A stretch of DNA of 64,000 nt from an uncultured bacterium (GTDB lineage: Bacteria; Zixibacteria; MSB-5A5; JAABVY01; JAHJOQ01): the NCBI GenBank assembly GCA_965369655.1, contig CBDUQR010000004.1, forward strand, positions 7,951 to 71,950. The letters run 5' to 3'. Below, piece by piece: positions 7,479 to 43,015 of the stretch. Under the pieces are notes generated by a model. The model was given only the letters and a program-made list of their open reading frames with translations, made no database searches and had not been told where the DNA came from. The translations under genes were made by a program, and so were the position numbers. The first letter of the stretch is position 1. Each line of letters begins with the position of its first letter.

Positions 7479-9734
7479 TCATTCCGGATGCGGATAGAGT
7501 GAATCGACGGCGGCGAGTGCAGTCATGTTAACAATGCCGTCGACGTCGACAGCTCTGTGCAGGATATGGATCGGTTTACTGATTCCCTGGAGAATCGGTC
7601 CTATCGCCTCCGCATTGCCGAGCTGCATCATCAGCTTGTACGTCGATGTCCCACTGTCGAGGTTCGGGAAGATCAGGCAGTTCGCATCGCCCTTGATCAG
7701 CGAGAACGGGAAATCCCTCTCGGAGATATACGGTGCGACGGCGGTGTCAGCCTGCATCTCACCCTCGACAACGAGATCCGGGTGATCGCGCTTCAGGATT
7801 TTTGTAGCTTCCCGCACTTTGTTGGTCTCGGCACATCTGACCGATCCGAAGTTCGAGAAGCTGATCATCGCAACGCGCGGTTCACAGTCGAAATGCCTCG
7901 CGGTTGCCGCGGTCATGAGCGCAATATCGACCAGTTGTTCGGCTGAAGGGTTGATGTTGATAGTTGTATCGGCAAAGAAGAGCGCTCTGTCCCTGAGCAT
8001 GATGACATAAACGCCGCACACGGTCGAACGGCCATTCGGTTTCTTGAGCAACTGCAGCGCCGGTTTGATCGTGTCGGGGAAATGCTGCCCGACGCCTGAG
8101 AGCAAAGTGTCCGCATCTCCGGCTTCGACCATCAGAGTCCCGAACACGTTCGTATCGAGAACATTCCTTTGAATGTCTCCGAGGTTGACTCCCTTGCGGT
8201 TCCGAAGTTCGAAATACCTGTCTGCGTACTGTTTGAATTTCGGGCTTTCTCTCGGATAGATGATCTCGATTCCATCGATACTGATATTGATCTCGGCAGC
8301 GCTTTCCCTAATCGTATCAGGATGGCCGAGAAGCACCGGGATCGCGATTTGCTCGTCTTTCACCCTGCGGGCGGCCGCGATTATCTTTTCGTTGCTTCCC
8401 TCAGGATAGACAATCCGTCTCGGATTGTGTTTGGCTCTGCTTATGGTCTGCCCAAGTATCTGGCGTGTCTTGCTGAGCCTGCGTTCGAGTTCCTCTTCGT
8501 ATTCTTCTATGTCGATCGTTTTCCGCGCGACGCCCGTATCCATCGCAGCCTTCGCAACAGCCGTTGCTTCCCTGACGAGTACGCGGGGGTCAAACGGCTT
8601 CGGAATGATATACTCCGGACCGAACTTGAGATGTTCACCACCGTACGCTTTGGTGACCGACTCGGGAACATACTCTTTGGCGAGCTCGGCAAGCGCGCGC
8701 GTTGCGGCAAGTTTCATCTCCATGTTGATCTTGCGCGCATGAACATCGAGCGCACCACGGAATATGAACGGGAAACCGAGCACATTGTTGACCTGATTCG
8801 GATAGTCGGAACGACCCGTCGCCATAATGATATCATCACGGGCGGCTTTTGCATCCTCGTAACTGATCTCCGGATCGGGATTCGCCATTGCAAATATGAT
8901 CGGATGATCGGCCATTGATCGAACCATATCCTTGGTCACCATGTCCTTGACTGATACACCGACGAACACATCAGCTCCATTCATGGCGTCTTCGAGCGTT
9001 CTCTCATCCGTATCTACGGCGAACTGTTCCTTGTACTTGTTCATTCCAGCAGTACGGCCTTTGTATATGACGCCTTTCGAATCGACCATCCTGATGTTTT
9101 CTCTCTTGACTCCGAGAGCGAGATACAGATTGGCGCATGCAATGCCCGCCGCTCCGGCTCCGAGGAAAACGCATTTGACTTTGTCTATATCCTTCTTGAC
9201 AATTTCGAGAGCGTTCACCAGCGCGGCCCCTGATATAATCGCGGTACCATGCTGATCGTCGTGAAACACAGGGATATCGAGTTCCTCGATCAGCGCCTCC
9301 TCGATTTCGAAACATTCCGGAGCTTTAATGTCTTCGAGATTGATACCGCCGAATGTCGGTGCGATCATCTTGCAAAAATTGATTATCTCCTTCGGATCAT
9401 GGCTGTCAATTTCAATGTCGAACACATCGACATCAGCAAACCTTTTGAAGAGGACGCCCTTGCCCTCCATCACAGGCTTGCCTGCCTCCGGACCTATGTC
9501 GCCGAGACCCAGTACAGCCGTTCCATTAGAAATAACAGCAACGAGGTTTCCCTTGGCAGTATACTCATAGACCTTGTCCGGACTCGCTGCGATCTCCAGG
9601 CACGGTTGCGCGACTCCCGGTGTATAGGCCAGAGAGAGGTCTTTCTGAGTGAGACAGGGTTTGGTCGCTACGACCTCAATTTTCCCCGCCCTGCCAATCG
9701 AATGATAGGCTAATGCCTCTTCCTTACTTGTCAC
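7479..9734 (-). CDS. maeB: NADP-dependent malic enzyme with C-terminal phosphotransacetylase-like domain
   Basis: 751 aa; malic enzyme N-terminal and NAD-binding motifs ([25 protein letters not shown]); C-terminal PTA-like domain ([11 protein letters not shown]...). Confidence 0.92.
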
Positions 9735-10527: not shown

Positions 10528-12057
10528 ATGAAAATGCCGACAAAAGGTGAACTCCTCCGACTCCAGGAGATGTATCACACCGACAAGCGCGTTGCCGAAG
10601 CTCTTGGCGGCAATGTCACTGAGCATCTTGTGCAGTACTGGCGGCGGAAAAAAGGCATACCGCGCAGGAAATTCCCCAAGTACTCAGAAGCGCAGATAAA
10701 GGAACTGTGGGAGCGTTACGGCGATGATTTCAGGTGCGGACGAGAGCTTGAACTCTCAAAGGCGGGATTCTACAGTTGGAGACGTCGCTACAATATAATG
10801 GACAAGCCGCATGCGTTAAGACTTGAACAGCTCGAACTGCGTTTTGGTGCGGAACCCAAACTTGGACGCGACGGAGTCTATGTCGAGTACTACAGGACCG
10901 TCGCCGAGAAAATCATGGCGAACTGTTCCGACAGCGATATTGTCGAGCGCAAACAGACTGTCGAACTGACGCCCGATCTGATACTGCTGGACCGACTGAG
11001 CGGAGAGGACCGACGCAAGCTGCGCATATCGAAATCGGTGGCCAATAGAGTCTGGCTTGCGACCGTTGATCGGGGCATCCTGTCGAACAGTCAACTGGAT
11101 ACTGGCAGGGTGCTGAACAATGTCTTCTCGCTTCTTCACCGCGAGGCTCTCTCGCCAAACATGCTGGTCGTGCGCAACAGTTGTTCAAGCGCTGGGTACT
11201 CGGCTTTCTCGACGCTTTCGATCGAGTTGAGGCAGGATCAACTGAACAAACTTCTGAAACGTGGCAAGTTCGAGTACACAGTACCGCCCGTGCTCAGGAT
11301 TACTCTTCAGGGAAGGCTCCAGCGCGGGGTCACGGCGTTTGACGTCTTCTGCTACGCCATATCAAATGTCTCCCAAAATGTTTTCGATGGCAGGATTGTC
11401 GAGTACGCAGGGAACGTGACCGAGAAGCTGAATATGTTCGAACGTTTCTCGCTGTGCCATCTTACTCCGGCCTCAGGCGCTGCCTGCGGGTACACTCTGT
11501 TCGATGAAACTACAAGAAAATACCTCGCCAGACGAGGCAGGTCCGACCACAAAGCGCTTTTCTCTGACTCGAAAGCATTTTATGACCGCGACTATGTCCT
11601 GATGGTTTCAGGATTGGCCCCGCAGATCATGAAGTCGGATGAGTTGAGATCGGGACAGCTTGTCAAGGATGCTGAGAATATCGGAGCAATCGATACGGTG
11701 TTCGTCGGGGGCCCCTGCGGGGGAGGGATCGAAGCGATGAAACAACTCGCCGATCTGCTCAAAGAACGCAGAGTACATTCATCGGTACGGATGTACATCT
11801 CCCCGCTGACTCAGGAGATTTACATCGAGGCGATCAAGAAACGCTACCTCGCTCCGATAGCGGAGGCGGGAGCGACAATTCTCCCGCCGGCTTCATCGCT
11901 GGAGGATATTCCAGGGTACACTCCGGGATCCGGGGCAGGCGTTCTCGCAACACCTTATCGATACGATGACAGCCATTCGCAGGACTGCTGGTATGTGAGC
12001 CATTTCACGGCAGCCGAGAGTGCTGTACAAGGCAAACTAAGCTGCGTCGGACGCTGA
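10528..12057 (+). CDS. aconitase-family large-subunit (LeuC type-2)-like protein; catalytic and Fe-S ligand motifs appear to be lost; ~90-aa HTH-like N-terminal extension
   Basis: Immediately upstream of a canonical LeuD type-2 gene. Segments align to LeuC type 2 (VFVGGPCGGGIE vs VFIGSCTNGRLE; ILPPASSLEDIPG vs VTNPSCSACMGSL; VVRNSCSSAGYSAF vs VVGADSHTCTHGAF), but two of three Cys ligands and the DSHT motif are substituted. Alignment is by eye and from memory. Confidence 0.55.
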   Translation: MKMPTKGELLRLQEMYHTDKRVAEALGGNVTEHLVQYWRRKKGIPRRKFPKYSEAQIKELWERYGDDFRCGRELELSKAGFYSWRRRYNIMDKPHALRLEQLELRFGAEPKLGRDGVYVEYYRTVAEKIMANCSDSDIVERKQTVELTPDLILLDRLSGEDRRKLRISKSVANRVWLATVDRGILSNSQLDTGRVLNNVFSLLHREALSPNMLVVRNSCSSAGYSAFSTLSIELRQDQLNKLLKRGKFEYTVPPVLRITLQGRLQRGVTAFDVFCYAISNVSQNVFDGRIVEYAGNVTEKLNMFERFSLCHLTPASGAACGYTLFDETTRKYLARRGRSDHKALFSDSKAFYDRDYVLMVSGLAPQIMKSDELRSGQLVKDAENIGAIDTVFVGGPCGGGIEAMKQLADLLKERRVHSSVRMYISPLTQEIYIEAIKKRYLAPIAEAGATILPPASSLEDIPGYTPGSGAGVLATPYRYDDSHSQDCWYVSHFTAAESAVQGKLSCVGR

Positions 12058-13174: not shown

Positions 13175-13298
13175 TATTGTGTGTATCCGGTAGATGTCCA
13201 GAGGTTGTCCCAAAAGGTCGTTTCGACAGGTCTTGGCGGCGACGGAGTCGTCGGTGTGACCTGTCGATTTTTTGCAAGCTATTGTCTGACATTGTTTC

Positions 13299-13346
13299 CA
13301 TTTTCCATCAGTTCACACGCCCGCCTTCAGCGGACGCAAGAACTGA
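13299..13346. repeat. dispersed hairpin repeat cagttcacacgcccgcc..acgcaagaactg; second copy at 36213-36257
   Basis: Two copies of ~47 nt. The base outside the cagttc/gaactg stem co-varies (t..a in copy 1, g..c in copy 2). Confidence 0.5.
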
Positions 13347-13420
13347 CGGAACGCTCGCATGACATATGCCCAAAATACGCTTGACAATATACATAGCAGA
13401 CCTGCCGCAACGATGTAAAT

Positions 13421-16657: not shown

Positions 16658-19600
16658 ATGTCAGAAACCAGTGATTTTTTACCTCCAAAGATACCATATG
16701 AGTTGAAGAAGGCTCAGCAGGACGGGAAATTAGTTGTATTCGTGGGGGCTGGCGTTTCCATGCCTCCGCCATCCAGTCTGCCGGACTTCAATGATCTCGC
16801 TAAGAAGCTCAAAGACAAATTAGGACCATCTTTCAAAAAGCGAGCGCGCAGTGAGTCGATTGATCAATTCATTGGCCGAATGGTAGACGAGAATCACGAC
16901 GTGCGGAAGTGGGTACGCGATATTTTCCTTAGTGAAAAATCAAAACCCAACAAACAACACGCCAATTTGATCAAGCTCTTTACTCAACCCAAGGATGTCA
17001 AGATCGTAACCACGAATTTTGATTCACATCTCTCAACAGCAGCGAGAGCTAAATTTGAGGATAGCAACGATATTAACGAATACCTGGCTCCTGCCTTGCC
17101 TCTGGGACGAGAGTTTTCAGGCATCGTTTATCTGCACGGACGTGCCGACCGAGGTGCGAATGAATTGGTGCTGACAGATCGAGATTTTGGAAAAGCCTAC
17201 TTGGCTGACGGCTGGGCGCGTCGATTCATGTTGGCTTTGTTCAGACATTACCATGTGCTTTTTGTTGGTTATAGTCACGAAGATTCTGTTCTGAGATATC
17301 TTGCCAGGGGATTGTTCGACAAGACTCAGCGATTTGCTTTTGCCACGGAAGCTAAAGAAGATCATTGGAAAAGACTGGGCATAAAGATAATTAAATACGA
17401 ACAAATCAAGAGAAAGAGAAAGTTCAAACTTGTCTGGGAAGCCATAAGCAGTTGGTCAAATCAGACACAATGGGGTCTACTGGATCACGAGAGAAGAATA
17501 ACCAATATTGTGTCCATAGTGGAGACAACAGATCCTATTTTATCGCCACATTCCAATCTTACTAAAGAAGATGCTCGGTATCTCATCGATGCCATCCAGC
17601 AAGAGCATCTGTTGCGTTTATTCTGCGACAAAGCAAAGCATACGTATTGGCTTGAATGGCTGGAGCAAAAGGAGAAGAACAAGGAGGCTGAGTATGACAC
17701 CAATGAGCAAGCTTGGAAAGAGCGACTCGAATTCTCAAAACTATTTAGTCCGACTGCTGAAATCGGAGAGCGAGAGCGTGTCCTTGCATGGTGGTTTGCC
17801 AAAAGCTTTGTCGGCTGCGACGATCAACAAGGGTTGATATATCTAACACAACGTGGCCAAACTGTCAATCCAGCATTATGGGACGAAATTGCAAGGGTAT
17901 TGGCTCACGGTAAGAAGCTCCCGAAACCGGAAACCTATGCCAAGTGGCTGTCAGTTCTTATGAACACTGTGCCTCAGCATAAGCATGCGTTAGATCGAAT
18001 CTTGACTAGTCGGAATTTGAACCAGAACTACTGGCGAGGCGTACTGAATCTGTTCCAGTTTCTGACTACTCCAAGATTGGAGCTGGAAGATGATTATATG
18101 GGTGAACTAATCAAAGGAGAGAAGAAAGTTAACGCGAATATATCAATGTTAGGTGATAAGTACTGCTTGGATGAGGCTTGGAAACGAATATTGAAACCAC
18201 TGCTCCCGACACTGTCAAGCGAACTGGCGGTCACATTCACAGGCCACTTCTGGCGTGCGCATTCGTTGTTGGTCGCCGCTGGCAAGGCTGGTCCCATGTG
18301 GAATCCGGTTAGTTTCAGTCGCTCGGCTATCGAGCCGCATGAACAAGATAGCCAGATGTTCGGATTCGAGCTCATTATCGACTATGCAAGAGATGTAATC
18401 GAATTCATTATCGAGAATGACACAAGACAGGCTGATGCCCTCATACAAATATGGATATCTTCGAAAGTTCCTATACTCGCTCGTCTCGCTGTTCACGCCA
18501 TGAGAAAGTCAATCCACGTTTCCTTCGACGACAAGCTACGCTGGGTACTTGAATGGGAGCTGATCTACAAGCATCTCACCAAACATGAGGTCTTCATGCT
18601 CTTAGAGCATGCTTTCCCCAAGGCAGGGCAAGACATGCAATTAGAGGTAATCGAGCGCGCCAAGATCGGACCTCATCGCGATGAAGGTGAAGATACAGAA
18701 CATGCGAAACTATATGAGTATGAGATATACTGTCTACTATATTGGCTTAAGAAGCATGCTCCGAAACTCCACTCTGCACAGCAAGCATTTGATGAGGTAC
18801 AGAGTAGGAATAAAGAATTCTCACCACCTGATCATCCTGAATTCTATAAGTGGAGTTCGGGTGCTATTTTAATTGAAGGCTTCTCTCCGATTGATGCTGA
18901 CGAACTCTTATTGAAACCTGCTGCAGAGCAGGTTGAATATTTGATGAACGGTGGATCTGAGTCCAGGCATATTTTCGAGAGAGAAGGTCTCATGGGGCAA
19001 GTTGGCATCGCGGCAAGAAAAAACCCGTCGTGGGGTTTAGACCTTGCAGAGGTGTTGAGGGATAGGACGGAATGGAAAGAAGATATTTGGAGCAGCATTC
19101 TTAATGCATGGCATAAACCACCTTTCAACAAAGAAGATTGGCCGCGAGCACTAGGAATCCTCGGGGACGTAAACATTCTCTCTAATAACCGATACACGAT
19201 AGGTTACATCCTCTGGCATGCGTCCGAAATGAAAAACATCTGGACTGAAGCGACTCTCCACGAAGCCGAGGCTATTACGGAGAGATTTTGGGATATTATC
19301 GGCAATGACGCACCAGAACGGACACCTGCTGACGACTGGCTGTTCGAGGCTATCAACCATCCGGCTGGTCAGCTTACTCTCTTCTGGCTGCACCTTATCG
19401 AAAGGCGCGCCGAACTCGCTGGACACGATCCTGACACAATACCCGACAAGTACAAAGAGCGTTTTGAAGCAATCATCTCAGGGACATCATACGCGAGTCA
19501 ACTTGGCCGTGTAACCCTCGCCAGCCAGATCAGATATGCATTCAGCCTAGATCGGCAATGGACAGTAGATAACCTGCTTCCGCTACTAGACTGGAATAAG

Positions 19601-20338
19601 GACGAACATCGTGCAGAGCAATGCTGGCACGGATTCATCGGCTGGGGAACACCGCCTTTCGAGTTACTGAAACACCTTAAGCCGCTGTATGAGCAAGCCA
19701 CCGAGAAGTTTCCTCCTGAGGCTTCCAGACTACGTGAGCATCTAATGCAACACTTGGCCTTCATGGCGCTTTCTCTTGAGAATCCGCTTCAGGACAAATG
19801 GTTGCTTCGAGTGAGAAGCCATATGATTCAGGAAGGCGATCTGCTAAAGTGGACTCACAGATTCAGATTCGTATTGATCGACATCCCTGACAACCAGAAG
19901 AAAGCAATATGGGATAGGTGGCTCTGTCAGTATTGGAAGGATCGTACAGAAGGTATATTCGGACGATTCGTTGAAGAGGAAGCCGCAGGAATGCTCAGTT
20001 GGGCACTCGAGCTTGGTCCTGTAATTGGAGAAGTTGTCAATGTTATTTGTAATTCTGATCCTGTAGATGTAGGTAGTACTTCTATTTACATCGAATTGGT
20101 CGAGAGTAGACTTGCAGAGAAGTACCCGGATCCCACAGCCGATCTTCTTCATCATCTTGCCAAGGGGCACAAGCATCCTCTTCCTGCGCAGGAATCCTAC
20201 ATGTGCCACGAGATGTCGGAACTTGTGAAAGAGCTTCATAAGCACGGCGCGTCAATTGATAAGCTCAAAGCAATTTGCGAAGAACTCGCAAAACTTGGAT
20301 GCACAGAAGCCCCTGATCCACATGATTCCCTAAAGTAG
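16658..20338 (+). CDS. SIR2-domain protein, 1226 aa: candidate defense-associated sirtuin (DSR-like NADase with large helical C-terminal region)
   Basis: N-terminus LVVFVGAGVSMPPP, TTNFDSHL, GIVYLHGRAD (SIR2-like Rossmann, Asn and His context). ~900-aa Trp-rich helical remainder, AT-richer than flanks. Hairpin terminator at 20343-20370. Confidence 0.7.
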   Translation: MSETSDFLPPKIPYELKKAQQDGKLVVFVGAGVSMPPPSSLPDFNDLAKKLKDKLGPSFKKRARSESIDQFIGRMVDENHDVRKWVRDIFLSEKSKPNKQHANLIKLFTQPKDVKIVTTNFDSHLSTAARAKFEDSNDINEYLAPALPLGREFSGIVYLHGRADRGANELVLTDRDFGKAYLADGWARRFMLALFRHYHVLFVGYSHEDSVLRYLARGLFDKTQRFAFATEAKEDHWKRLGIKIIKYEQIKRKRKFKLVWEAISSWSNQTQWGLLDHERRITNIVSIVETTDPILSPHSNLTKEDARYLIDAIQQEHLLRLFCDKAKHTYWLEWLEQKEKNKEAEYDTNEQAWKERLEFSKLFSPTAEIGERERVLAWWFAKSFVGCDDQQGLIYLTQRGQTVNPALWDEIARVLAHGKKLPKPETYAKWLSVLMNTVPQHKHALDRILTSRNLNQNYWRGVLNLFQFLTTPRLELEDDYMGELIKGEKKVNANISMLGDKYCLDEAWKRILKPLLPTLSSELAVTFTGHFWRAHSLLVAAGKAGPMWNPVSFSRSAIEPHEQDSQMFGFELIIDYARDVIEFIIENDTRQADALIQIWISSKVPILARLAVHAMRKSIHVSFDDKLRWVLEWELIYKHLTKHEVFMLLEHAFPKAGQDMQLEVIERAKIGPHRDEGEDTEHAKLYEYEIYCLLYWLKKHAPKLHSAQQAFDEVQSRNKEFSPPDHPEFYKWSSGAILIEGFSPIDADELLLKPAAEQVEYLMNGGSESRHIFEREGLMGQVGIAARKNPSWGLDLAEVLRDRTEWKEDIWSSILNAWHKPPFNKEDWPRALGILGDVNILSNNRYTIGYILWHASEMKNIWTEATLHEAEAITERFWDIIGNDAPERTPADDWLFEAINHPAGQLTLFWLHLIERRAELAGHDPDTIPDKYKERFEAIISGTSYASQLGRVTLASQIRYAFSLDRQWTVDNLLPLLDWNKDEHRAEQCWHGFIGWGTPPFELLKHLKPLYEQATEKFPPEASRLREHLMQHLAFMALSLENPLQDKWLLRVRSHMIQEGDLLKWTHRFRFVLIDIPDNQKKAIWDRWLCQYWKDRTEGIFGRFVEEEAAGMLSWALELGPVIGEVVNVICNSDPVDVGSTSIYIELVESRLAEKYPDPTADLLHHLAKGHKHPLPAQESYMCHEMSELVKELHKHGASIDKLKAICEELAKLGCTEAPDPHDSLK

Positions 20339-20398: not shown

Positions 20399-22657
20399 AT
20401 GGAAGAGCCGAAAGTCGATCTGCAGCTTGCTCTCGATCATGGGCTGTCGGAAGAGGAATACAATCGGATTCTTGATACACTCGGGCGCACGCCGACCTAC
20501 ACTGAGCTTGGGATATTCTCGGTCATGTGGTCGGAGCATTGTTCCTACAAGAATTCTATCGCCCTGCTGAAAACACTTCCGCGCGAGGGATCGACTCTCC
20601 TTACAATGGCGGGCGAGGAAAATGCCGGTGCGGTCGATATCGGCAACGGTTTCGCGATCGTGTTCAAAATCGAATCGCACAACCATCCGACCGCAGTCGA
20701 ACCATATCAGGCAGCAGCAACAGGCGTCGGCGGAATTCTCCGCGACATATTCACTATGGGCGCGCGACCGATTGCCTGTCTCGACTCACTCAGATTCGGC
20801 AATCTCGAAGACCCGCGCTCGCGGTATCTTTTCAATGGCGCAGTCAAAGGCATCGGCGATTACGGCAATTCGTTCGGCGTACCGACTGTCGGCGGCGAGG
20901 TCTATTTCGAGCAATGTTATCAAAGCAACCCGCTCGTCAATCCAATGGCTGTCGGCATCGTGAAGACCGACGGCATCATCAGCGCGACAGCCAAAGGTGC
21001 GGGCAACCCGGTCTATATCGTCGGATCATCGACCGGCCGCGACGGCATCCATGGCGCAACATTCGCATCCGAGGAACTCTCCGAGGAATCTCAATCCAAA
21101 CGCCCATCGGTACAGATCGGCGATCCGTTTACCGAGAAACTCCTGCTCGAAGCCACACTCGAAATCATCAAAGATGATCTGATCGTCGGCATACAGGATA
21201 TGGGCGCGGCGGGAATCACCTGCTGTTCGACCGAGATGGCCGCTCGCGGCAAATCCGGCATGGAGATCGAACTCTCGAAAGTGCCCGTGCGCGAGGAGAA
21301 AATGACGCCGTACGAAATCATGCTCTCCGAATCGCAGGAAAGGATGATGGTGGTCGTCAAGAAGGGCTGCGAATCCAAAGTCGACGAGATATTCAGGAAG
21401 TGGGGGCTTCACGCTGTCGAGATCGGTCATGTAATCGATGAGGACAGAGTGATCGTGCACAACAATGGCAAAGTCGTGGCCGATGTACCGGCTGATATTC
21501 TCGTCCTCGGCGGAGGCGCACCAGTCTATCACAGGGAGACTCGGAGACCAGCATATATCGACGAGTTACGCGAACTCGATCTGGCTGACATCCCCATCCC
21601 GGTCGATCTGAATGCCGCTCTCCTGAGTGTCATCGGTTCTCAGTGCATGGCCGACACGAGCTGGATATACCGGCAGTATGACCACATGGTGCGAACCAAT
21701 ACGGCTGTCCAGCCCGGGTCCGATGCCGCAGTAATCAGGATCAGAAAGACGAACATGGCGATCGCCCTTACAACCGACTGCAACGGCAGATACTGCTATT
21801 TGAATCCGAGACGGGGTGCGATGATTGCCGTGGCCGAAGCTGCGCGAAACATCACGGCATCAGGCGGCAGACCAGCGGCTATAACGAATTGTCTGAACTT
21901 CGGCAATCCAAACAAGCCGGAGATGTACTGGAGTTTCACCGAAGCCGTAGCAGGCATGGGCGAGGCATGCCGCGTGTTCGATACGCCTGTCACCGGCGGC
22001 AATGTGTCGTTCTACAACGAGGACAAGATGACAAAGCGAGCAGTCTATCCGACACCGGTCATCGGGATGCTTGGAATCATAGATGATGTCTCTCATATCA
22101 CCACGCAGTATTTCAAAGACGAAGGCGATGCAATTCTACTCGTCGGTGAAACGACCGGGGAACTCGGCGGATCGGAGTATCTGAAGGTCGTTCACGATAA
22201 AGTCCGGGGTGACTGTCCTGCTATCGATCTGTCGCTCGAAAAAAAGACACAGGACGCGGTCCGAGGACTCGTAACATCAGGGCTTATCAAATCATGCCAC
22301 GATATCTCCGAAGGCGGGCTGGCAATAGCATTAGCCGAATGTTGCATCACGGACAGGGAGAATCAGATTGGATGTGAGGTCTCAATCGAGACAGAACTGC
22401 GACCTGATGTTATGCTGTTCAGCGAGTCCCAATCCCGATTTGTGATCGGCGTTGCGGAGGATGATGTTCAGGAAGTTATATCTCAACTCGGTCGCAGCGA
22501 AATCCCAGTCCGAAAAATAGGACGGGTCGGCGGAGTGAGGTTGGTAATCGATTCACTCATCGACTGCGCACTCGAACAGCTCGGCGAAGCATACTTCAGC
22601 ACACTCTATCGCTATATGGACTCACAATCTTGCAGGTCAAGCGGCCTGCCCGCTTGA
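20399..22657 (+). CDS. purL: phosphoribosylformylglycinamidine synthase subunit PurL (FGAM synthase II)
   Basis: Start chosen at MEEPKVDLQLALDHGLSEEEY (GGAGGG sits 5 nt upstream of the ATG at 20399); classic PurL motifs (ESHNHPTAVEPYQAAATGVGGILRD, tandem AIRS domains). Confidence 0.92.
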   Translation: MEEPKVDLQLALDHGLSEEEYNRILDTLGRTPTYTELGIFSVMWSEHCSYKNSIALLKTLPREGSTLLTMAGEENAGAVDIGNGFAIVFKIESHNHPTAVEPYQAAATGVGGILRDIFTMGARPIACLDSLRFGNLEDPRSRYLFNGAVKGIGDYGNSFGVPTVGGEVYFEQCYQSNPLVNPMAVGIVKTDGIISATAKGAGNPVYIVGSSTGRDGIHGATFASEELSEESQSKRPSVQIGDPFTEKLLLEATLEIIKDDLIVGIQDMGAAGITCCSTEMAARGKSGMEIELSKVPVREEKMTPYEIMLSESQERMMVVVKKGCESKVDEIFRKWGLHAVEIGHVIDEDRVIVHNNGKVVADVPADILVLGGGAPVYHRETRRPAYIDELRELDLADIPIPVDLNAALLSVIGSQCMADTSWIYRQYDHMVRTNTAVQPGSDAAVIRIRKTNMAIALTTDCNGRYCYLNPRRGAMIAVAEAARNITASGGRPAAITNCLNFGNPNKPEMYWSFTEAVAGMGEACRVFDTPVTGGNVSFYNEDKMTKRAVYPTPVIGMLGIIDDVSHITTQYFKDEGDAILLVGETTGELGGSEYLKVVHDKVRGDCPAIDLSLEKKTQDAVRGLVTSGLIKSCHDISEGGLAIALAECCITDRENQIGCEVSIETELRPDVMLFSESQSRFVIGVAEDDVQEVISQLGRSEIPVRKIGRVGGVRLVIDSLIDCALEQLGEAYFSTLYRYMDSQSCRSSGLPA

Positions 22658-22658
22658 C

Positions 22659-22875
22659 ATTTCTTCAACCGTCAAGCGCCCTTCGCAAGTCTCAGGACAG
22701 ACGAGCGCGTTAGACCTACGAAGGCTGAGATTGCCGCGCTTCGCTCGCAATGACGGCAGTCGATCATGACTCTCGTGTTCGTCGGGACTGTGACTCTGAT
22801 ACAACACGCAGAGGCACAGCCTCTGCGTGCACAGATATACCAATGTCATTCCTGTGCAAACCGGAATCTAGGAGA
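22659..22875. repeat. cluster of REP-like modules downstream of purL (cccttcgcaagtctcaggac; gtcattcctgtgcaaaccggaatc)
   Basis: Same module families as at 5471-5600, 15296-15420, 35160-35262 and 43895-43965. Confidence 0.5.
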
Positions 22876-23105
22876 AGATGGTTCCCGGCTTTCGGGCATG
22901 TTGAAAAAGTCCTTTAGATCAGCGTTGAATAGTGTTGATTGTGGTTATACAAACAAAACGAGAGCAATATCAACAGTCGAGGTCGAAACCCTTACCTGTC
23001 CTGAGCCTGCGAAGGGCGGTTTCGACAATTCGCGCAAAACGCGAAAAGGAAAGAGTTGTCAAGTCTCTCCGTTCGCTTCGCGAACTCCGAGATTTGACCT
23101 ACTCA

Positions 23106-23251
23106 ACTAATCGGACGCTGAGGAGTCTGTCCAATGCCTAAGGAATGAATTCTAAACTCGGCGACCAACTATGTCGGCACATTGAGATAGAATACACTCA
23201 AACAGACAGTATACACGAACGCCGCCCGGATATGATTCAGGCGGCGTTTTG
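23106..23251 (+). repeat. 146-bp direct repeat, left copy; right copy at 24645-24790, ~93% identical. Each contains a rho-independent terminator (cgccgcccggatatgattcaggcggcgtttt)
   Basis: The two copies bracket the methyltransferase gene; the last 8 codons of the MTase (NRTLRSLSNA) lie inside the repeat. Confidence 0.9.
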
Positions 23252-23264
23252 ACTGGGATGTTCC

Positions 23265-23293
23265 TTGACTGCGAACGATGCTTCGCGTATTAT
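23265..23293 (+). promoter_or_regulatory. candidate sigma70-type promoter (TTGACT-17 nt-TATTAT) upstream of the methyltransferase
   Basis: ttgact gcgaacgatgcttcgcg tattat: near-consensus hexamers with 17-nt spacing, ~100 nt upstream of the ATG at 23397. Confidence 0.4.
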
Positions 23294-23396
23294 CCGATCA
23301 GGGAATGCTACGCTTCAGGCCTGCGGCTCTTTTCACGTAGAGCAAAGCGTGGCATATACCGCGTATGGGAATCTGTCATTTTGTTGACTGGGAATT

Positions 23397-24680
23397 TTGC
23401 ACTTGATGCGGACGAATCACAGAATAGTATTCGGTGACGCACGAAGAATGTCCCTCCTGGAATCTCGGAGTGTCCACTTAGTTGTTACCTCTCCGCCTTA
23501 CTGGCAGCTAAAGGACTATGGCACAAGTGAGCAAATTGGATTCGATAACTCCTACGAGGATTATGTTAACAATCTTAACTTAGTGTGGAGAGAATGCCAC
23601 CGGGTTTTGCATGACGGTTGCAAACTCTGCGTCAATATCGGAGATCAGTTTGCCCGCTCAGTCTACTATGGAAGGTACAAGATCATTCCTATCAGAACGG
23701 AGATAATCAGGTTTTGCGAGACAATCGGTTTCGATTTCATGGGGTCGATTATCTGGCAGAAAGTGACTACCTGCAACACAACAGGCGGCGCGACCATCAT
23801 GGGATCATTTCCCTATCCCAGAAACGGTATTGTCAAGATAGACTATGAGTTCATTCTTCTGTTCAAGAAACAGGGCACCCCCCCTCGTGTCACACCGGAA
23901 GTGAAGGAGAAATCGAGATTGACGAAAGAGGAGTGGAACACTTTCTTCAACGGCCACTGGAATTTCCCCGGCGAAAAACAGTCAAACCATTTGGCAATGT
24001 TCCCGGAAGAACTGCCGAGGCGTCTCATCAAGATGTTCAGCTTTGTAGGAGAACGCGTGCTTGACCCGTTTCTCGGGAGCGGAACGACCACACTTGCCGC
24101 CATGAATCTGGAGCGAGATTCGGTGGGTTATGAGATGTCTACCGATTTCAAGAATATAATCGCTACAAAATTGCAGCAGGGGAGTGATCTGTTCAAGAAA
24201 GTCGATGTCGACTATCTTGAGGATACCTCTCGGCCTGAGGAAAACGATTGGGAATCATTGCCGTATCTTTTCCGTGATCCCCTGAAGTTAGACAAGAAAG
24301 TTGATCCCAGAAAACTGTTGTTCGGTTCCAGGATAAACAGTGAATCCAAAAGTGAAAGACAGTATTATTCTGTTAAGGAAATCCTATCGCCGGATGAACT
24401 GATGTTGGACAGTGGGCTCACTATCAAGCTGCTTGGAATACAACCAGTAAATGGGCTTGAATCCGAAGCAATAAAGTACCTGGAGGATGCTGTCAAGGGG
24501 AAAAAGGTCTCTCTGAAGTTCGATCGAGTCAGGTACGATGATTCCAAACGACTTCTTGTCTATCTTTATCTCAAGAACAGGACATTCATTAATGCTCACC
24601 TGGTCAAACGAGGCTTTGCCGAAGTGGACAGCACGCTGGACATTACTAATCGGACACTGAGGAGTCTGTCCAATGCCTAA
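23397..24680 (+). CDS. DNA methyltransferase, beta class (N4-cytosine or N6-adenine), with C-terminal SNase/thermonuclease-like OB-fold domain
   Basis: Motif IV TSPPY precedes motif I DPFLGSGTT (beta-class order); C-terminal ~130 aa (IKLLGIQPVNGLESEAIKYLEDAVKGKKVSLKFDRVRYDDSKRLLVYLY...AHLVKRGFA) resembles the SNase fold but the Ca/catalytic residues are not obvious. Confidence 0.8.
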   Translation: MHLMRTNHRIVFGDARRMSLLESRSVHLVVTSPPYWQLKDYGTSEQIGFDNSYEDYVNNLNLVWRECHRVLHDGCKLCVNIGDQFARSVYYGRYKIIPIRTEIIRFCETIGFDFMGSIIWQKVTTCNTTGGATIMGSFPYPRNGIVKIDYEFILLFKKQGTPPRVTPEVKEKSRLTKEEWNTFFNGHWNFPGEKQSNHLAMFPEELPRRLIKMFSFVGERVLDPFLGSGTTTLAAMNLERDSVGYEMSTDFKNIIATKLQQGSDLFKKVDVDYLEDTSRPEENDWESLPYLFRDPLKLDKKVDPRKLLFGSRINSESKSERQYYSVKEILSPDELMLDSGLTIKLLGIQPVNGLESEAIKYLEDAVKGKKVSLKFDRVRYDDSKRLLVYLYLKNRTFINAHLVKRGFAEVDSTLDITNRTLRSLSNA

Positions 24681-24790
24681 GGAATGGATTCTAAACTCGG
24701 CGACCAACTATGTCGGCACATTGAGATAGACAATACTCTGAGAGTCAGCATACACGAACGCCGCCCGGATATGATTCAGGAGGCGTTTTG
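24645..24790 (+). repeat. 146-bp direct repeat, right copy (includes the terminator hairpin at 24758-24793)
   Basis: See the left copy at 23106-23251. Confidence 0.9.
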
Positions 24791-24820
24791 TTTATTCAGT
24801 AGCTATCAAGCAGTAAATTC

Positions 24821-26620
24821 CTACACGGAATCCGGATAGACTGATCGCCTAAGGATATTTTGACACTCATCCAAGGCATCTCCTGATTTGTCATAGAGTT
24901 TGTCAAGTAGGAGTCCCCACCCGCCAATCTGTGAATCTTTATCAGTCCCAAGTCTTTCGAGCAACTTATCGATGGAAATATCCCTGTGATCATTTGCTTT
25001 TCTCAGATCATGCAGAATATACAGGGCGTTTAGAGGGTTGGGAAGTTGTTCATCGTTCTTAAGTTGAGATATTCTTTCACTTACTGATTCTTCGATATCT
25101 TTAGTGTCAGTGAAAGCGCTTAGGCCTCGTTCGTCTGCAACAAGGCATATCTGGACTAAATAGTTCAACAGTTTGAGAGATTTCTTCCCTTTGATTCGAT
25201 TTCCATCAACATTCAAGGCCAAAAGCAGTTTGCGGAGTGTTTTCTCCTTTAGACCTTCAACTAACACCTTATTGAGGATATTGCATCTCGCAAGGAATCC
25301 TGATTCACTCAATTCCAATGGTATGTGACTGGCTACTTTGCCAGCATACTTTTGAGTCCACCATCCTTCATAATCTAATCTCTTATGGTCAATACTGACG
25401 AAATCCTCAGTGGATGACGTTTCCTCCATAACTCCCTTGGAGATTTCAGTTAGATACTGTCCCAATTTTACTAACCCAATGTACAGACGTTCCGCGCGGA
25501 TTGCGATGTTCGGTTCTTTGCTAAGTACTGAAATGTCGCCTTTTGGTGGATCGACAGCGAACTCATTCCAGTGACGAACCACATCAGAAGGCAGACATTC
25601 GTAAAGCTTTCGCAATTCAGCTTGAATGAGATTGCGCCCTATCCGGTGGCAACGGTCAAAACCCCATTGTCCTTTGTAATACACTGCGCCGATGTCCGGA
25701 AGAATCTTATATAGGTCGGGCTCGGCTTCATAGTCTTCTAGCACTTCATCGCTCACATAGACTTGAGGCATTAGCATTTGCCCAGCTCTGTCCTTTGACA
25801 CTGGCCCACTAATACCCGGCCAATGCAGTGAGCCATAGTCGTCAGTAGCAAACGACACTGGTTTACTGCCAGGCTCAACTAGTAGCCTGACACCATTGAT
25901 CTCGATATGGACTAAGCGGGGGTTGTTGTCTATTCGATGCAGATAAATGGTTCTGCCGGGAAAGACAAGTTTTCCACTTGGATTGATGTCCAATGCTCGT
26001 TTGATATCTTCAGTCATTTCATATTCTCTACTATCCAAGTAGACTTGCACAAGTGATCGATGACGAATCGTGGCGTACTCCTGCAGATAGTCGCGGTGTA
26101 TTTCAATCCACGCTGGGGATTGCAGTCCATACTTATATACTGACACAGATTTGCAGGTTATTACTTTGAACATTGATCTTGAGGCATCGTACCAGTGTAT
26201 TTCATCAGCCTTGCCATCCCTTCGAATTGTCCTTGGTACAAGGCCAAAGGCCGAAAGAAATCTGGGGTCAGGTATCATTACAGATTCGTTTGAACCTGCA
26301 TTCCACGCTGCAACAATTGATTCAAGCCCTTCTGATACTATGTCAGCAGCCCATATATAGAAGGAAGGCGGTATTTCTGTTGAGTCTGCAGACGGTACTC
26401 TGCTTCGTACTTCGTGACCGATACCGCCATCGAACTTTAAAAGTTCTGCGGTTAGGTCTGGGGAGACCAGAGCTGTGAATGTCTCACGCAGGCTGTACTC
26501 TTCAACAGGTTTTCGTATTTCAGCTACTGTCACTTGCTCATTCTCAAGTGGCCTTTCATTGCGAAGATGCTTTAGTGGTTCTGGCCACCAGTTTTCATCT
26601 AACTCATTGTGTTTCTGCAT
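24821..26620 (-). CDS. hypothetical protein, 599 aa, AT-rich, convergent with the methyltransferase; no Walker A and no recognisable nuclease motif
   Basis: Long uninterrupted ORF, weak SD (gagga) upstream of ATG 26620; composition differs from neighbours. Confidence 0.6.
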   Translation of the reverse strand: MQKHNELDENWWPEPLKHLRNERPLENEQVTVAEIRKPVEEYSLRETFTALVSPDLTAELLKFDGGIGHEVRSRVPSADSTEIPPSFYIWAADIVSEGLESIVAAWNAGSNESVMIPDPRFLSAFGLVPRTIRRDGKADEIHWYDASRSMFKVITCKSVSVYKYGLQSPAWIEIHRDYLQEYATIRHRSLVQVYLDSREYEMTEDIKRALDINPSGKLVFPGRTIYLHRIDNNPRLVHIEINGVRLLVEPGSKPVSFATDDYGSLHWPGISGPVSKDRAGQMLMPQVYVSDEVLEDYEAEPDLYKILPDIGAVYYKGQWGFDRCHRIGRNLIQAELRKLYECLPSDVVRHWNEFAVDPPKGDISVLSKEPNIAIRAERLYIGLVKLGQYLTEISKGVMEETSSTEDFVSIDHKRLDYEGWWTQKYAGKVASHIPLELSESGFLARCNILNKVLVEGLKEKTLRKLLLALNVDGNRIKGKKSLKLLNYLVQICLVADERGLSAFTDTKDIEESVSERISQLKNDEQLPNPLNALYILHDLRKANDHRDISIDKLLERLGTDKDSQIGGWGLLLDKLYDKSGDALDECQNILRRSVYPDSV

Positions 26621-26941: not shown

Positions 26942-27838
26942 GTGATCATGTCTTCATCGAGAAACAACTATCCGATTCGCGCCTGCACCCTGCACCTGAT
27001 CCTTGCTGCAGGATTTGTGCTGACTCTGTCTGCAATGTCATCAGTGGCAGCCGATCCGATTCTAAATCTGTATGTTGAGGATACTCCGCTAACACCAAAA
27101 GATTCTTTTGTCACATTCGAGGTGATGATGAATGCGACCGAAGACTCCGTGGGGAGCTTCGAGATATGGTTACAGATGTCTCATCCGTTCATACTTCGGT
27201 TTGACATGGATGATCCTGTTGATACCACTGGCTCTATCTTCGACTGGGGGCTGAGTTGGACCGATTACGGTACTGACGGGAATCTAATCAAGATTCTCGG
27301 ATGGGACGGGGTGGATGGCACGCCGATAGCCCCGAGTGATATTCCGCAGTTGCTGTTTACCCTCAAGGCTGAAGTTATCGACACGATGGCTGACACGCTC
27401 TGTGGATTCACCGGAGAAGTAATCATCAATGTATGGACTTATTTCAACAAGACTACTTTCCCGTACCGGATTGGCTGGGATTTCTGGGAGGAATACGACA
27501 CCACATTCGAGAACTGTGTCGAATGGATTGGCGATTCGTGCATCGCATGGGCTGACACGATCGTGGATACAACAATGTATAATGAACCGAATATGGAGTT
27601 GCTCAACTACCAGGATGGCAGCTACACATTCATCTGTTTCATATGCGGCGACTGCGATAACTCCGGATTAGTCGATATCGATGATGCCGTCTATTTGATA
27701 ACATACATATTCGCTTCCGGTCCTCCTCCGGATCCGCTCGAGAAAGGCGATGTCGACTGGTCGGGTGCAGTTGATATTGATGATGTTGTCTATCTGATAA
27801 CATACATATTTGCCGGCGGACCACCGCCATGTGATTAG
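26942..27838 (+). CDS. secreted protein with C-terminal double dockerin-like repeat
   Basis: Signal peptide (LHLILAAGFVLTLSAMSSVAA); C-terminus GDCDNSGLVDIDDAVYLITYIFASGPPPDP...GDVDWSGAVDIDDVVYLITYIFAGGPPPCD. Confidence 0.75.
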   Translation: MIMSSSRNNYPIRACTLHLILAAGFVLTLSAMSSVAADPILNLYVEDTPLTPKDSFVTFEVMMNATEDSVGSFEIWLQMSHPFILRFDMDDPVDTTGSIFDWGLSWTDYGTDGNLIKILGWDGVDGTPIAPSDIPQLLFTLKAEVIDTMADTLCGFTGEVIINVWTYFNKTTFPYRIGWDFWEEYDTTFENCVEWIGDSCIAWADTIVDTTMYNEPNMELLNYQDGSYTFICFICGDCDNSGLVDIDDAVYLITYIFASGPPPDPLEKGDVDWSGAVDIDDVVYLITYIFAGGPPPCD

Positions 27839-35262: not shown

Positions 35263-36212
35263 GCTCGACTACCTCCGACAGATTGAGCTTGACACAATGG
35301 TCTGCAATCGAATTATTTATCAAAGCTATAATCGTGCGCTTGAGTACGTTCCGGAAGCCTGCTAAGAGTAAGGACTAAACTATGATTGCCAAGTATGTGA
35401 TTGCTTGGCATTGGCCGGGGGGAATTCAATTTCCAGAATCTACAGGGTGATCGGGAGGTGAGAGAATGCTAAGAAGATCACATGTGATATGCGCGCTGTT
35501 GCCTGTCAGGAAATGCCCTGTATTAGGTCGCACTAACCGTCTGAGGGTTGTCTCGGTATGTGTCATATATCTCTTCCTTTGTTCCATTTATGGCACTGTC
35601 GCGTGTGCTCAATCTGATCATCCCAAGAGCAACCTGCATGCAGGTCTAGGACTAATGACAAGTCCCAAGCTATATGATGAATGTCGTGCAGGTGGGTGGC
35701 TCAATGTCGAAACTGGCCTCACCTTGAGTTTTTCGAAGAATATATCTCTCCTTCCCAGATTATGTATTCTATCTAACCAATCTTATAGAATTCGATTTGC
35801 GATCATTCCTGAAATCGGGACGCGTTTCAGCATTCCCTTGGGCCCAGATGCTGTTTTCTGCGGTGTACAAGTCGGGGTGGTGTTACACCAAGGAGAATTG
35901 AATCGATTGGAACTGGTTTCGGGCGGTCTCTCGTTCTGCGCAGGTATGGGTTGTTCTTGTCTTGATTTCTGCGAGTTTGAGATGTTTTGTCGCCATATGC
36001 CATTGAAAAATGTTGGTCAAAATTCTGATCATGTTCCCTGGGGCAACGCATTGCCAACATCTGAAACTTCTAACTTTGGTGACTTTGGATTTGTGGTTCG
36101 ATTCCTATTGCCGTTACAACTCTGATCGTAATCTCTTTTTCGTTGAGTCGGGTCTTGGTCGCACGGAGCGTGAGTGTGACCTGACACGTTCTGCAATCGA
36201 TTCCATTATCCG

Positions 36213-36292
36213 GCAGTTCACACGCCCGCCTCCGGCGAACGCAAGAACTGCCGGAACGGATACACCCGCCGTTGCACTCTGGGTGGGCTACG
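36213..36292. repeat. REP-like modules (cagttcacacgcccgcc hairpin and cactctgggtgggctacggaat)
   Basis: Copies at 13299-13346 and 35226-35262. Confidence 0.5.
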
Positions 36293-36345
36293 GAATATGA
36301 AGATGGGGCAAACGAGAAGAGGTTGTCTTATAAGTCCTGGTCTTC

Positions 36346-36459
36346 AGTAGGTCGGCGTTCCGCAGCAGGCGAAGCCTGCAAGAAACCCGACTCTCGGATA
36401 ACAAGATAGAAGTGTCGCGTTTCTCACCCCGCACCGCGGGGTTCGGAACACGACCTACT
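36346..36459. repeat. 114-nt element bounded by 16-bp terminal inverted repeats (agtaggtcggcgttcc / ggaacacgacctact), with two internal hairpins; copy A. Possible structured RNA or MITE/REP module
   Basis: ~90% identical to 60726-60839. All differences that fall in stems are compensatory (gcagg/cctgc vs gcaag/cttgc; cccgc-acc-gcggg vs ctgat-tac-atcag). Confidence 0.8.
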
Positions 36460-36499
36460 TCTGAGATGGCCTCAGGACGTCTGTCGCCCACAAAAAGAA

Positions 36500-40604: not shown

Positions 40605-40680
40605 ACGCAGACATATAATGCGGATATGTCTGTTTTGTCAATCGGCTTGTCACGTGAGACTTCGCTGGAACGCGTCAGAA

Positions 40681-41430: not shown

Positions 41431-41465
41431 TAAGACACCTCCAACGAACACTGAACTGAGTAAAT

Positions 41466-42203: not shown

Positions 42204-42237
42204 TCGACACCTCCTGCAGATATGAAATGGCTCACAT

Positions 42238-42981: not shown

Positions 42982-43015
42982 TCGACACCTCCCGTGAACA
43001 CGAAACGGATCAAGT

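Follow-up and report, generated by a model that had tools for sequence, protein, structure and literature searches.

A repeat-flanked orphan DNA methyltransferase gene in a Zixibacteria contig as the probable remnant of an MjaI-type restriction-modification module

How does a DNA methyltransferase gene come to lie, together with its promoter, between two long direct repeats? We asked this of a locus in an uncultured bacterium of the Zixibacteria lineage (contig CBDUQR010000004.1), using a 64-kb stretch of DNA that we refer to as the window. The original prediction saw in this locus a cassette inserted, or able to be excised, by recombination between attL/attR-like repeats, and in its product an unusual fusion of a methylase with a staphylococcal nuclease (SNase)-like domain. 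According to our analysis, the locus is an ordinary decaying restriction-modification (R-M) module with a local duplication, neither an excisable cassette nor an unusual fusion. Its features are the following.

22982..23104, + strand: cluster of three hairpins (-52 kcal/mol, z -3.66), whose end meets the left boundary of the upstream repeat
23106..23251, + strand: upstream 146-nt direct repeat, made of a methylase tail (11 codons and stop), an endonuclease stump, a spacer and a hairpin, with no methylase body attached
23134..23190, + strand: upstream copy of the endonuclease stump, codon 5 changed from TGG to TGA (MPKE*ILNSATNYVGTLR*)
23217..23250, + strand: hairpin of the upstream repeat, followed by TTTT (-23.3 kcal/mol, z -5.2)
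23265..23293, + strand: sigma-70-like promoter TTGACT-17-TATTAT of the methylase gene, a consensus match only (10 of 12 positions)
23406..24680, + strand: intact gene of a beta-class DNA methyltransferase of 424 aa, with Pfam, PDB and PADLOC matches, also called in public assemblies
24363..24635, + strand: SNase-like (OB-fold) domain of the methylase, from Pfam PF00565, an AF2 domain model and Foldseek
24645..24790, + strand: downstream 146-nt direct repeat, in which the methylase gene actually ends
24673..24729, + strand: downstream copy of the endonuclease stump, MPKEWILNSATN (homologous), then YVGTLR* (non-homologous)
24756..24797, + strand: hairpin of the downstream repeat with a T-rich tail, GTTTTGTTTATT (-15.5 kcal/mol, z -2.1), the putative terminator of the methylase gene
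24821..26620, - strand: convergent gene of a 599-aa protein, in the same low-GC island and not a conserved partner of the methylase

The methyltransferase and its C-terminal domain

The open reading frame of the methylase spans positions 23397-24680 and opens at a TTG (23397), the ATG at 23406 being the likely start. The protein matches the Pfam family N6_N4_Mtase (PF01555, 1e-40) and, end to end, the Type II methyltransferase model of PADLOC (MTase_II PDLC03259, 423 positions, 5.8e-178). Its motifs come in the order TSPPY, then DPFLGSGTT, and both are invariant in the family alignment. The SPPY form is typical of N4-cytosine enzymes, and the protein probably belongs to these. The homologs scored number at least 8,000; those with 60-70% identity are scattered over bacterial and archaeal phyla, a family that, by all appearances, has clearly been transferred horizontally. 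Because of this scatter and of the low GC content of the methylase region (0.41-0.49, compared with 0.55 in purL), the gene looks acquired rather than ancestral, as the original prediction had proposed. Carriage of the locus by a plasmid was considered and rejected, since the plasmid matches to the methylase are confined to the catalytic domain and stay under 40% identity. The biochemistry of this very large family of SNase-tailed methylases appears to be unstudied.

The C-terminal ~130 aa of the protein had been thought to adopt an SNase/OB fold without catalytic residues, and both halves of this claim held. The domain matches Pfam SNase (PF00565) at 2.6e-6, with 28.3 bits against a gathering score of 21. 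In the AF2 model the core of the domain has a pLDDT above 90, and every top Foldseek match is a staphylococcal nuclease (E 5e-7, TM 0.65-0.69, rmsd 2.5-3.0 A). We compared the family alignment with an SNase reference sequence (its residues 52-120 agree with the PDB alignments), taking D21, D40, T41, R35, E43 and R87 to be the Ca-binding and catalytic residues of the nuclease. These positions are not conserved in the methylase family: Pro stands in place of D21, the D40-T41-E43 loop varies or is lacking, and the consensus has Asn instead of R87. Since the family as a whole lacks the Ca-binding and catalytic residues, the domain would be non-catalytic and is not expected to cut DNA; most likely, it binds DNA. 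The claim that the fusion is unusual fared differently. Most of the best 120 methylase homologs carry both PF01555 and PF00565, and this combination is, as judged from the size of the family and from the full-length PADLOC model, its normal architecture.

Within the 64-kb window, the methylase gene is intact and no cognate endonuclease is present, which makes its product an orphan methyltransferase. The convergent 599-aa gene was considered as the cognate endonuclease and rejected: it is missing from all 80 of the 80 methylase loci, and its product has no match in Pfam, PADLOC or NCBIfam. Moreover, homologs of the 599-aa protein with a readable neighbourhood have no adjacent methylase; two more contigs end too early on one side.

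The repeats and the endonuclease stump

The two direct repeats bracket the methylase gene as had been described (92% identity for a claimed ~93%, with 11 mismatches and 0 gaps), and the near-consensus promoter does lie between them. Their starts are 1,539 nt apart, and positions 23106-24790 amount to 1.09 copies of a 1,539-bp unit. The original prediction had named a generic multi-copy terminator element as the finding that would speak against it; this candidate was rejected as far as the 64-kb window is concerned, where only these two copies exist (0 expected by chance). Each repeat starts with the last 11 codons of the methylase (TNRTLRSLSNA) and the stop codon. The coding overlap had thus been correctly noticed, but with 8 codons instead of 11. 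The repeat goes on with the 12 homologous codons of the endonuclease stump, which run into 6 unrelated codons and a stop; the homologous codons are followed by 82 nt ending in the hairpin. The left 64 nt of the repeat are a conserved junction, at which the methylase gene overlaps with the gene of an MjaI-family endonuclease.

This junction is found in relatives of the methylase. In 64 of the 80 genome loci with a 60-66% identical methylase, a conserved protein of ~210 aa is encoded immediately downstream on the same strand, and these loci span many phyla. The partner protein matches the Pfam family RE_MjaI (PF09568) at 2.7e-48. The two genes overlap in the homologs at TAATG or ATGCCTAA; in the window, CCAATGCCTAAGGAATGG is present at both repeat copies. 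The ATG of the downstream stump overlaps the stop codon of the methylase (AATGCCTAA), as it does in two of the homologous loci (L075 and L036), and the first 12 aa of the stump are identical to those of the L075 partner, after which the homology ends. No RE_MjaI-like sequence was found elsewhere in the 64-kb window. On these comparisons, the locus is an R-M module whose endonuclease gene was deleted after codon 12, and the repeat is a piece of the R-M operon itself and not an attachment site. The endonuclease is absent from 8 loci of the family and reduced to fragments in L032, L044, L056, L058, L061 and L071; its loss or decay thus appears to recur within the methylase family. The earlier reading of this DNA had missed the R-M identity of the locus, with its deleted endonuclease gene.

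The differences between the two copies are not evenly spread. The perfectly matching blocks are 30, 43 and 31 nt long, and 8 of the 11 mismatches fall inside a 19-nt spacer (p about 0.001), leaving 3 in the 122 nt formed by the first 86 nt and the hairpin. Such clustering is not predicted by simple neutral divergence after a duplication, and could reflect gene conversion, a constraint acting on the remainder of the repeat, or different origins of the two copies. As for the rho-independent hairpin claimed at the end of each repeat, hairpins with a short T run are present, but a simple consensus terminator scan called neither of them. The downstream hairpin differs from the upstream one by a C>A change in the stem (one stem mismatch) and by a longer T tract; the U tract of the upstream hairpin is short (UUUUG). 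Both are putative intrinsic terminators, and the upstream one may insulate the methylase promoter from read-through out of purL.

The spacer that precedes the upstream repeat (22658-23105) was considered as a decayed first copy of the methylase or endonuclease gene, and rejected since six-frame profile searches came back empty; in the region 22600-23420, no remnant of a methylase body or endonuclease body was found. A multi-copy REP-like element was rejected too, no further copy of the spacer being present in the window or in the fetched loci. The three-hairpin cluster that abuts the repeat may be a hot spot for a rearrangement junction.

Origin of the locus

We consider it probable that the locus derives from a decayed Type II R-M module of the MjaI type, which first lost its endonuclease and then acquired a second copy of its 3' end module, upstream of the methylase promoter. 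In a first step, the endonuclease gene would have been deleted after codon 12; in a second step, the 3' end module of the crippled operon would have been duplicated upstream of the promoter. Both repeat copies share one deletion junction, and the endonuclease loss therefore preceded the duplication. As to how the duplication came about, we infer, as the most parsimonious route, that the methylase-plus-terminator unit would have been duplicated in tandem and most of the first copy then lost. As no remnant of the first methylase copy is left, this second event, a deletion, has to be assumed. Had a tandem or circular intermediate instead inserted a little over one unit length, the outcome would be the same. 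The left junction would lie against the hairpin cluster, and a hairpin terminator would now stand between purL and the methylase promoter. The perfect blocks would be long enough for RecA-dependent recombination, leading to deletion or re-amplification of the methylase gene. Such a deletion would not be lethal, because the endonuclease is gone.

An assembly or chimera artefact could be suspected from the metagenomic source and from short contigs that break within the repeats (one of them, L171, spans 23149-24717). This is scarcely credible. The same arrangement occurs with 100% identity in ERZ23498918 (ENA, 89.7-kb scaffold), in ERZ25746585 (ENA, 12.6 kb) and in a Logan contig of SRR22302358, and with 99.8% identity in ERZ25748669. 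It is therefore not an assembly artefact, being identical or nearly so in four assemblies from different accessions and assemblers; moreover, the 11 positions at which the copies differ are such that each variant is consistently joined to its own flank. The attL/attR-like cassette, for its part, draws on the exact bracketing of promoter and gene by direct repeats and on a gene family that, from its distribution, is clearly horizontally transferred. We nevertheless hold it to be very improbable, indeed largely refuted. The repeats, at 146 nt, consist of the operon's own coding sequence (methylase tail and endonuclease head) and terminator. Integrase, transposase and resolvase genes are absent from ~8.6 kb upstream to ~12 kb downstream of the cassette in Pfam-annotated public gene tables, and none of the methylase, the 599-aa protein and the Dsr1-like protein has the identity of a recombinase. 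A tRNA or tmRNA gene that could serve as target is absent from the window. The assemblies that carry the locus contain the linear arrangement only, with no circular or empty junction: a circular or tandem junction was considered for the short contigs L170 and L171 and rejected, as their ends match the linear arrangement, with ordinary breaks at the shared 43-nt block. Most homologous methylase loci, finally, have no flanking repeats. Nothing in these data points to a dedicated site-specific recombination mechanism. Close relatives with shared synteny were not found; the best purL match, from a metagenome, is 70% identical at the amino acid level and has no flanking genes in common, and the contig of the sole close relative (L164, with about 82% nucleotide identity) stops before the methylase.

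Flanking repeats are not restricted to this locus. Direct repeats bracket units of this methylase family in 6 of 53 locus windows, compared with 4 of 129 control windows (Fisher p = 0.037), in agreement with a published enrichment of such repeats at R-M systems, for which amplification via the repeats has been described (PMC2853133). Other members of the family are bracketed by repeats of 44-107 nt, and the repeat at L027 clearly comes from the host, being the 5' end of purC. These cases lend some weight to a Campbell-type homologous integration, or an insertion with long target duplication, in which circular or linear DNA carrying a related and complete methylase unit without the endonuclease would have joined the chromosome via an older relic made of tail, stump and terminator only. 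The 8% divergence of the repeats would in that case reflect two alleles and not the time since duplication; indeed, clock-like decay accounts for 8 of 11 mismatches within 19 nt less well than two diverged alleles or a conversion patch would, and the low-GC island argues for acquisition. However, the relic would need the same endonuclease deletion junction, and so an already-deleted common ancestor, and the repeated sequence is the unit's own, the opposite of a long target duplication. We regard such an integration as unlikely. That the duplicated module was kept because it is functional, as a terminator/insulator or a 3'-end small RNA whose two copies are maintained via selection or gene conversion, seems quite improbable to us. 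The near identity of the copies outside the 19-nt spacer, together with an upstream hairpin that is the more stable of the two and stands exactly between purL and the methylase promoter, would fit this idea. On the other side, Rfam gave zero matches in the window at the gathering threshold, the full-length repeat does not fold in a consistently unusual way (z -3.4 and -1.4), a hairpin is already present at the stop codon of purL itself, and the homogeneity of the copies is accounted for by gene conversion between neighbouring repeats, with no function required.

Known relatives and significance

MjaI recognises and cuts CTAG. In the window, CTAG is the most depleted 4-bp palindrome (17 observed for 70 expected, a ratio of 0.24), but many bacteria have few CTAG sites and the depletion is therefore weak evidence. 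Over the catalytic domain, the methylase is 33% identical to the methylase of plasmid pFZ1, which we take to be M.MthZI, and it is 36% identical to a Haloferacaceae plasmid methylase. From the partner family of the homologs, the SPPY motif, these identities of 33-36% and the CTAG depletion, we predict CTAG recognition and an N4-methylcytosine product; the methylase is thus possibly CTAG-specific.

Like the CTAG R-M systems MjaI, MthZI and BfaI, the homologs of the window's methylase are paired with an RE_MjaI endonuclease in a translationally coupled operon, methylase first, and the methylase shares their SPPY motif and beta-class motif order. In contrast, the endonuclease gene is deleted in the window. 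M.MjaI, M.MthZI and M.BfaI are reported as 303-364 aa long (PMC5867850, which also underlies the identity of the pFZ1 methylase as M.MthZI) and, by their length, should lack the ~130-aa SNase-like domain. An orphan CTAG m4C methyltransferase with no cognate endonuclease, HVO_0794, has been described in Haloferax volcanii (PMC5867850). The window's enzyme shares with it the beta class, the SPPY motif, the solitary state and a relationship to CTAG enzymes, but the haloarchaeal orphans are conserved across a clade, maybe with a cellular role, whereas the gene studied here has an additional SNase-like domain and keeps an endonuclease stump. Because it still carries this stump, the orphan state of the gene can be seen to be a derived one. 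Among solved structures, the nearest to the catalytic domain is TTHA0409, a putative DNA methylase of Thermus thermophilus HB8 (PDB 2zie, 2zif, 2zig), which matches residues 8-253 only (phmmer 1.3e-55 for 2zie, Foldseek 6e-23, about 35% identity); at 297 aa, it is without the SNase-like domain. This domain has the OB-type fold in common with staphylococcal nuclease/thermonuclease (PF00565), the Ca-binding and catalytic residues of which are missing in the methylase family.

The locus also resembles R-M insertions with long target duplication, in that repeats of more than 30 bp bracket an R-M-derived unit without transposase or integrase and could support amplification or deletion. It differs from them in two respects: the repeat is the unit's own 3' end and not a host target, and the insert holds the methylase only, the endonuclease being already dead. 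Of the criteria of Furuta et al. 2010, the repeats of more than 30 bp and the absence of mobile-element genes are found here, but R and M are not both in the insert. The content of the repeat, as read from its sequence, argues against a host target. Redundancy derived from the R-M unit itself appears to recur in the family: at L050, the last endonuclease codons and a terminator hairpin form a 47-nt repeat, of which a copy stands 201 nt upstream of the methylase, and at L004 a fragment of the methylase 5' end follows the endonuclease gene. Together with the 146 nt of the window, three loci fit a pattern in which R-M units of this family would spread or rearrange through over-length intermediates, tandem or rolling-circle-like, that leave unit-derived terminal redundancy. 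We offer this generalization as an unlikely one. If true, this would be a signature of mobility other than long target duplication, with the repeat as the working substrate on which the methylase gene is amplified and lost.

Two tempting misreadings are corrected by these results, the flanking repeats not being att sites and the SNase-like domain not being a rare fusion. The latter is a standard appendage, of a DNA-binding type, of a very large and horizontally mobile methylase family. Altogether, the locus is a clean, datable example of an R-M system turning into an orphan methyltransferase. Two copies of the endonuclease stump have survived, and the order of events is therefore fixed, endonuclease loss coming before duplication. 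The wider value of the case is modest. It is one more instance of the association, already known, of R-M units with direct repeats at their flanks, with the hint that some of the repeats flanking R-M systems come from the unit itself.

Structure and content of the repeats

We examined the organization of the methylase locus. The original observation, that direct repeats bracket a methyltransferase gene and its near-consensus promoter, was borne out, since both the ORF and a site matching 10/12 consensus positions lie between two 146-nt copies:

22982-23104: three-hairpin cluster (−52 kcal/mol, z −3.66), the last hairpin ending at the left repeat boundary
23106-23251: upstream repeat copy, 146 nt
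23265-23293: promoter-like site, TTGACT-17-TATTAT
23406-24680 (+): methylase ORF, ATG at 23406, 424 aa, Pfam DNA methylase domain (1e-40)
24645-24790: downstream repeat copy, 146 nt
24821-26620 (−): gene for a 599-aa protein

The copies are 92% identical (11 mismatches, 0 gaps) and start 1,539 nt apart, so that 23106-24790 represents 1.09 copies of a 1,539-bp period, and the homology stops sharply at both edges. The element occurs only twice in the 64-kb window, with 0 occurrences expected by chance (38- and 42-nt pieces, up to 3 mismatches), and a window-wide repeat search gave the same result. An assembly artefact was ruled out as the source of the repeats: four assemblies agree, each repeat variant being attached to its own flank in all of them. 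Identity over the arrangement is 100% for ERZ23498918 (ENA, 89.7-kb scaffold), ERZ25746585 (ENA, 12.6-kb contig) and a Logan contig of SRR22302358, and 99.8% for ERZ25748669.

We then compared the locus with 80 genome loci encoding methylases that share 60-66% identity with that of the window (Planctomycetota, Nitrospirota, Deltaproteobacteria, Omnitrophota, Patescibacteria, Methanosarcinaceae and others). The gene directly 3' of the methylase, on the same strand, specifies a conserved protein of about 210 aa at 64 of these loci, and this partner matches the Pfam restriction endonuclease family RE_MjaI (PF09568) at 2.7e-48. The endonuclease start overlaps or abuts the methylase stop in these homologs, as TAATG or ATGCCTAA, and the window junction, CCAATGCCTAAGGAATGG, is of the same type. 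Translation from its ATG gives MPKEWILNSATN, which agrees at every position with residues 1-12 of the partner at one of these loci (L075) and resembles the N-terminal pattern of the family, M[PA]KEWILN. Past codon 12 the endonuclease homology ends, and 6 unrelated codons and a stop follow. The stump is also present in the upstream repeat, where a TGG codon has become TGA, and no further RE_MjaI-like sequence was found elsewhere in the 64-kb window. Given the homolog junction, the 12-codon stump and the loss of homology after it, each repeat is composed of the methylase tail, the stump of a deleted endonuclease gene and 82 nt ending in a hairpin. The gene does overlap the repeat as noted, but by its last 11 codons and the stop, not by 8 codons. 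As the deletion junction is the same in both copies, the endonuclease was therefore lost before the segment was duplicated.

A terminator had also been predicted in each repeat. A hairpin does end each copy (upstream, −23.3 kcal/mol, z −5.2; downstream, −15.5 kcal/mol, z −2.1, with one stem mismatch and a longer T tract), but a simple terminator scan called neither; it did detect another hairpin, located at the stop codon of purL. The three-hairpin cluster fills the end of the 448-nt spacer separating purL from the upstream repeat, and no second copy of it was found in the window. The window contains just two copies of the 10-mer TTGACTGGGA: at 23249-23258, straddling the right edge of the upstream repeat, and at 23384-23393, 13 nt before the methylase ATG. 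The pair brackets a 125-nt segment containing the promoter-like site, and may represent either microhomology remaining from the rearrangement or an operator-like repeat.

A solitary methylase with an SNase-like domain

The enzyme belongs to the beta class, TSPPY preceding DPFLGSGTT; both motifs are invariant in a 46-sequence family alignment. The closest solved structure, Thermus thermophilus TTHA0409, covers the catalytic domain only (1.3e-55; Foldseek 6e-23). Over the catalytic domain, the window's enzyme shares 33% identity with the Methanothermobacter plasmid pFZ1 methylase and 36% with one from a haloarchaeal plasmid. The broad group includes the characterised CTAG m4C enzymes M.MthZI, M.MjaI and M.BfaI, as well as the Haloferax volcanii orphan methylase HVO_0794 (PMC5867850). 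From the partner family, CTAG can reasonably be predicted as the target. Among 4-bp palindromes in the window, CTAG shows the strongest depletion (17 observed versus 70 expected from trinucleotides, O/E 0.24) and GGCC the next strongest (O/E 0.51); the scarcity of CTAG lends slight support to this specificity.

The C-terminal region matches the SNase Pfam family above the gathering score (2.6e-6). In the AlphaFold model of residues 290-424, pLDDT exceeds 90 over the folded core, and all top Foldseek matches are staphylococcal nucleases (E about 5e-7, TM 0.65-0.69, rmsd 2.5-3.0 Å), as with the full-length model. Alignment of the family with SNase shows Pro in place of Asp21, a missing or variable Asp40-Thr41-Glu43 loop and a consensus Asn at the position of Arg87. 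The SNase fold without catalytic residues that had been anticipated is thus confirmed. The fusion itself, which had been supposed to be unusual, is not: most of the best 120 of at least 8,000 scored homologs have both Pfam domains, and a 423-position PADLOC Type II methylase model matches residues 3 to 410 (5.8e-178). The likeliest role of the domain would be DNA binding or target recognition.

The endonuclease gene is clearly intact in 46/80 methylase loci. About 15 have a divergent ORF of about 200 aa, 8 lack the endonuclease gene, and several loci retain fragments (L032, L044, L056, L058, L061 and L071; head only in L061, tail only in L071, an in-frame internal deletion in L056). Keeping the methylase after losing the endonuclease is a recurrent outcome in the family. 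Altogether, the locus is what remains of a Type II restriction-modification module after decay, with the methyltransferase left on its own: a methylase orphaned from an MjaI-type operon and flanked by a duplicate of its own 3' end.

Genomic surroundings

Further features of the window are the following:

16658-20338 (+): SIR2_2 and DUF4020 protein, 1,226 aa, directly upstream of purL
40666-43755 (−): four tandem paralogous genes, about 241-276 aa, period about 775 nt
27646-27811, 50093-50258, 53527-53692: paired dockerin-like 67-nt repeats, 99 nt apart
36307-36483 and 60687-60863; 13285-13353 and 36190-36258; 16587, 35227, 36263: dispersed intergenic repeats

The 1,226-aa protein matches the anti-phage sirtuin Dsr1 over nearly its full length (PADLOC, 8.9e-80), and the NCBIfam Dsr1 model at 2.4e-90, yet under that model's cutoff. 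The GC content of its gene is lower than that of purL, which therefore lies between two defence-type islands. The 599-aa protein has no Pfam, PADLOC or NCBIfam match. Its homologs of similar length number about 63 (28-77% identity) and come from diverse bacteria; toxin-antitoxin, transposase or resolvase genes are present in some of the neighbourhoods inspected, and no homolog adjoins a methylase where the neighbourhood was readable. In L164, a relative at 82% nucleotide identity, the gene appears interrupted past codon 339.

The tandem paralogs share 68-78% nucleotide identity (97% in some 78-nt blocks), and segments of these genes recur, inverted, in the dockerin-like repeats at 27646-27811 and 50093-50258. 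The paired repeats encode GDxDxSGxVDIDDxVYLIxYIF motifs at the C-termini of three large secreted-looking proteins. The dispersed repeats form several families of 37-122 nt with 65-84% identity, some of them having inverted partners, and could represent REP-like elements belonging to this genome. An ORF at 5800-7305 contains a 90-nt periodic repeat (6539-6954, at least 4 units, 62-78% identical).

Proposed origin and possible consequences of the duplication

The repeats had been likened to attL/attR. Their derivation from the operon itself, the absence of integrase, transposase or resolvase genes in a stretch reaching about 8.6 kb upstream and about 12 kb downstream of the cassette, and the lack of tRNA genes in the window argue against att-type site-specific recombination. 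We favour a model in which the methylase-terminator unit was tandemly duplicated and its first copy then largely lost; equivalently, slightly more than one unit would have been inserted from a tandem or circular intermediate. Redundancy derived from the unit also occurs elsewhere, supporting this model. Indeed, L050 has a 47-nt perfect repeat (last endonuclease codons and terminator hairpin; 6457-6503 and 8607-8653), one copy lying 201 nt upstream of the methylase, and in L004 a methylase 5'-end fragment (3602-3676) follows the endonuclease gene. Upstream of the upstream repeat, whose left edge adjoins the hairpin cluster, no remnant of the methylase or endonuclease body was found. Another candidate is that a related unit integrated by homologous recombination at a pre-existing relic: 8 of the 11 mismatches are clustered within 19 nt (p about 0.001), a pattern that speaks for such an event or for gene conversion.

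Across the family, units bracketed by 38-107-nt direct repeats were found in 6/53 testable loci versus 4/129 control windows (p = 0.037). At one of these loci, L027, from a Clostridia MAG, the methylase-endonuclease unit has a 107-nt pseudo-copy of the purC 5' end on one side and the genuine purC 5' end on the other (9391-9497 and 11900-12006, 87% identity), resembling a classic case of insertion with long target duplication, here of host sequence. Like the window site, it is next to a purine-biosynthesis gene. No close relative was found: in the metagenome collection, purL reaches at most 70% protein identity, without shared synteny, and the contig of L164, the sole relative at about 82% nucleotide identity, ends before the methylase.

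The window's repeats contain perfect blocks of 30, 43 and 31 nt, so that homologous recombination between them could lead to loss or amplification of the methylase gene. In the absence of the endonuclease, losing the methylase would not be expected to kill the cell.
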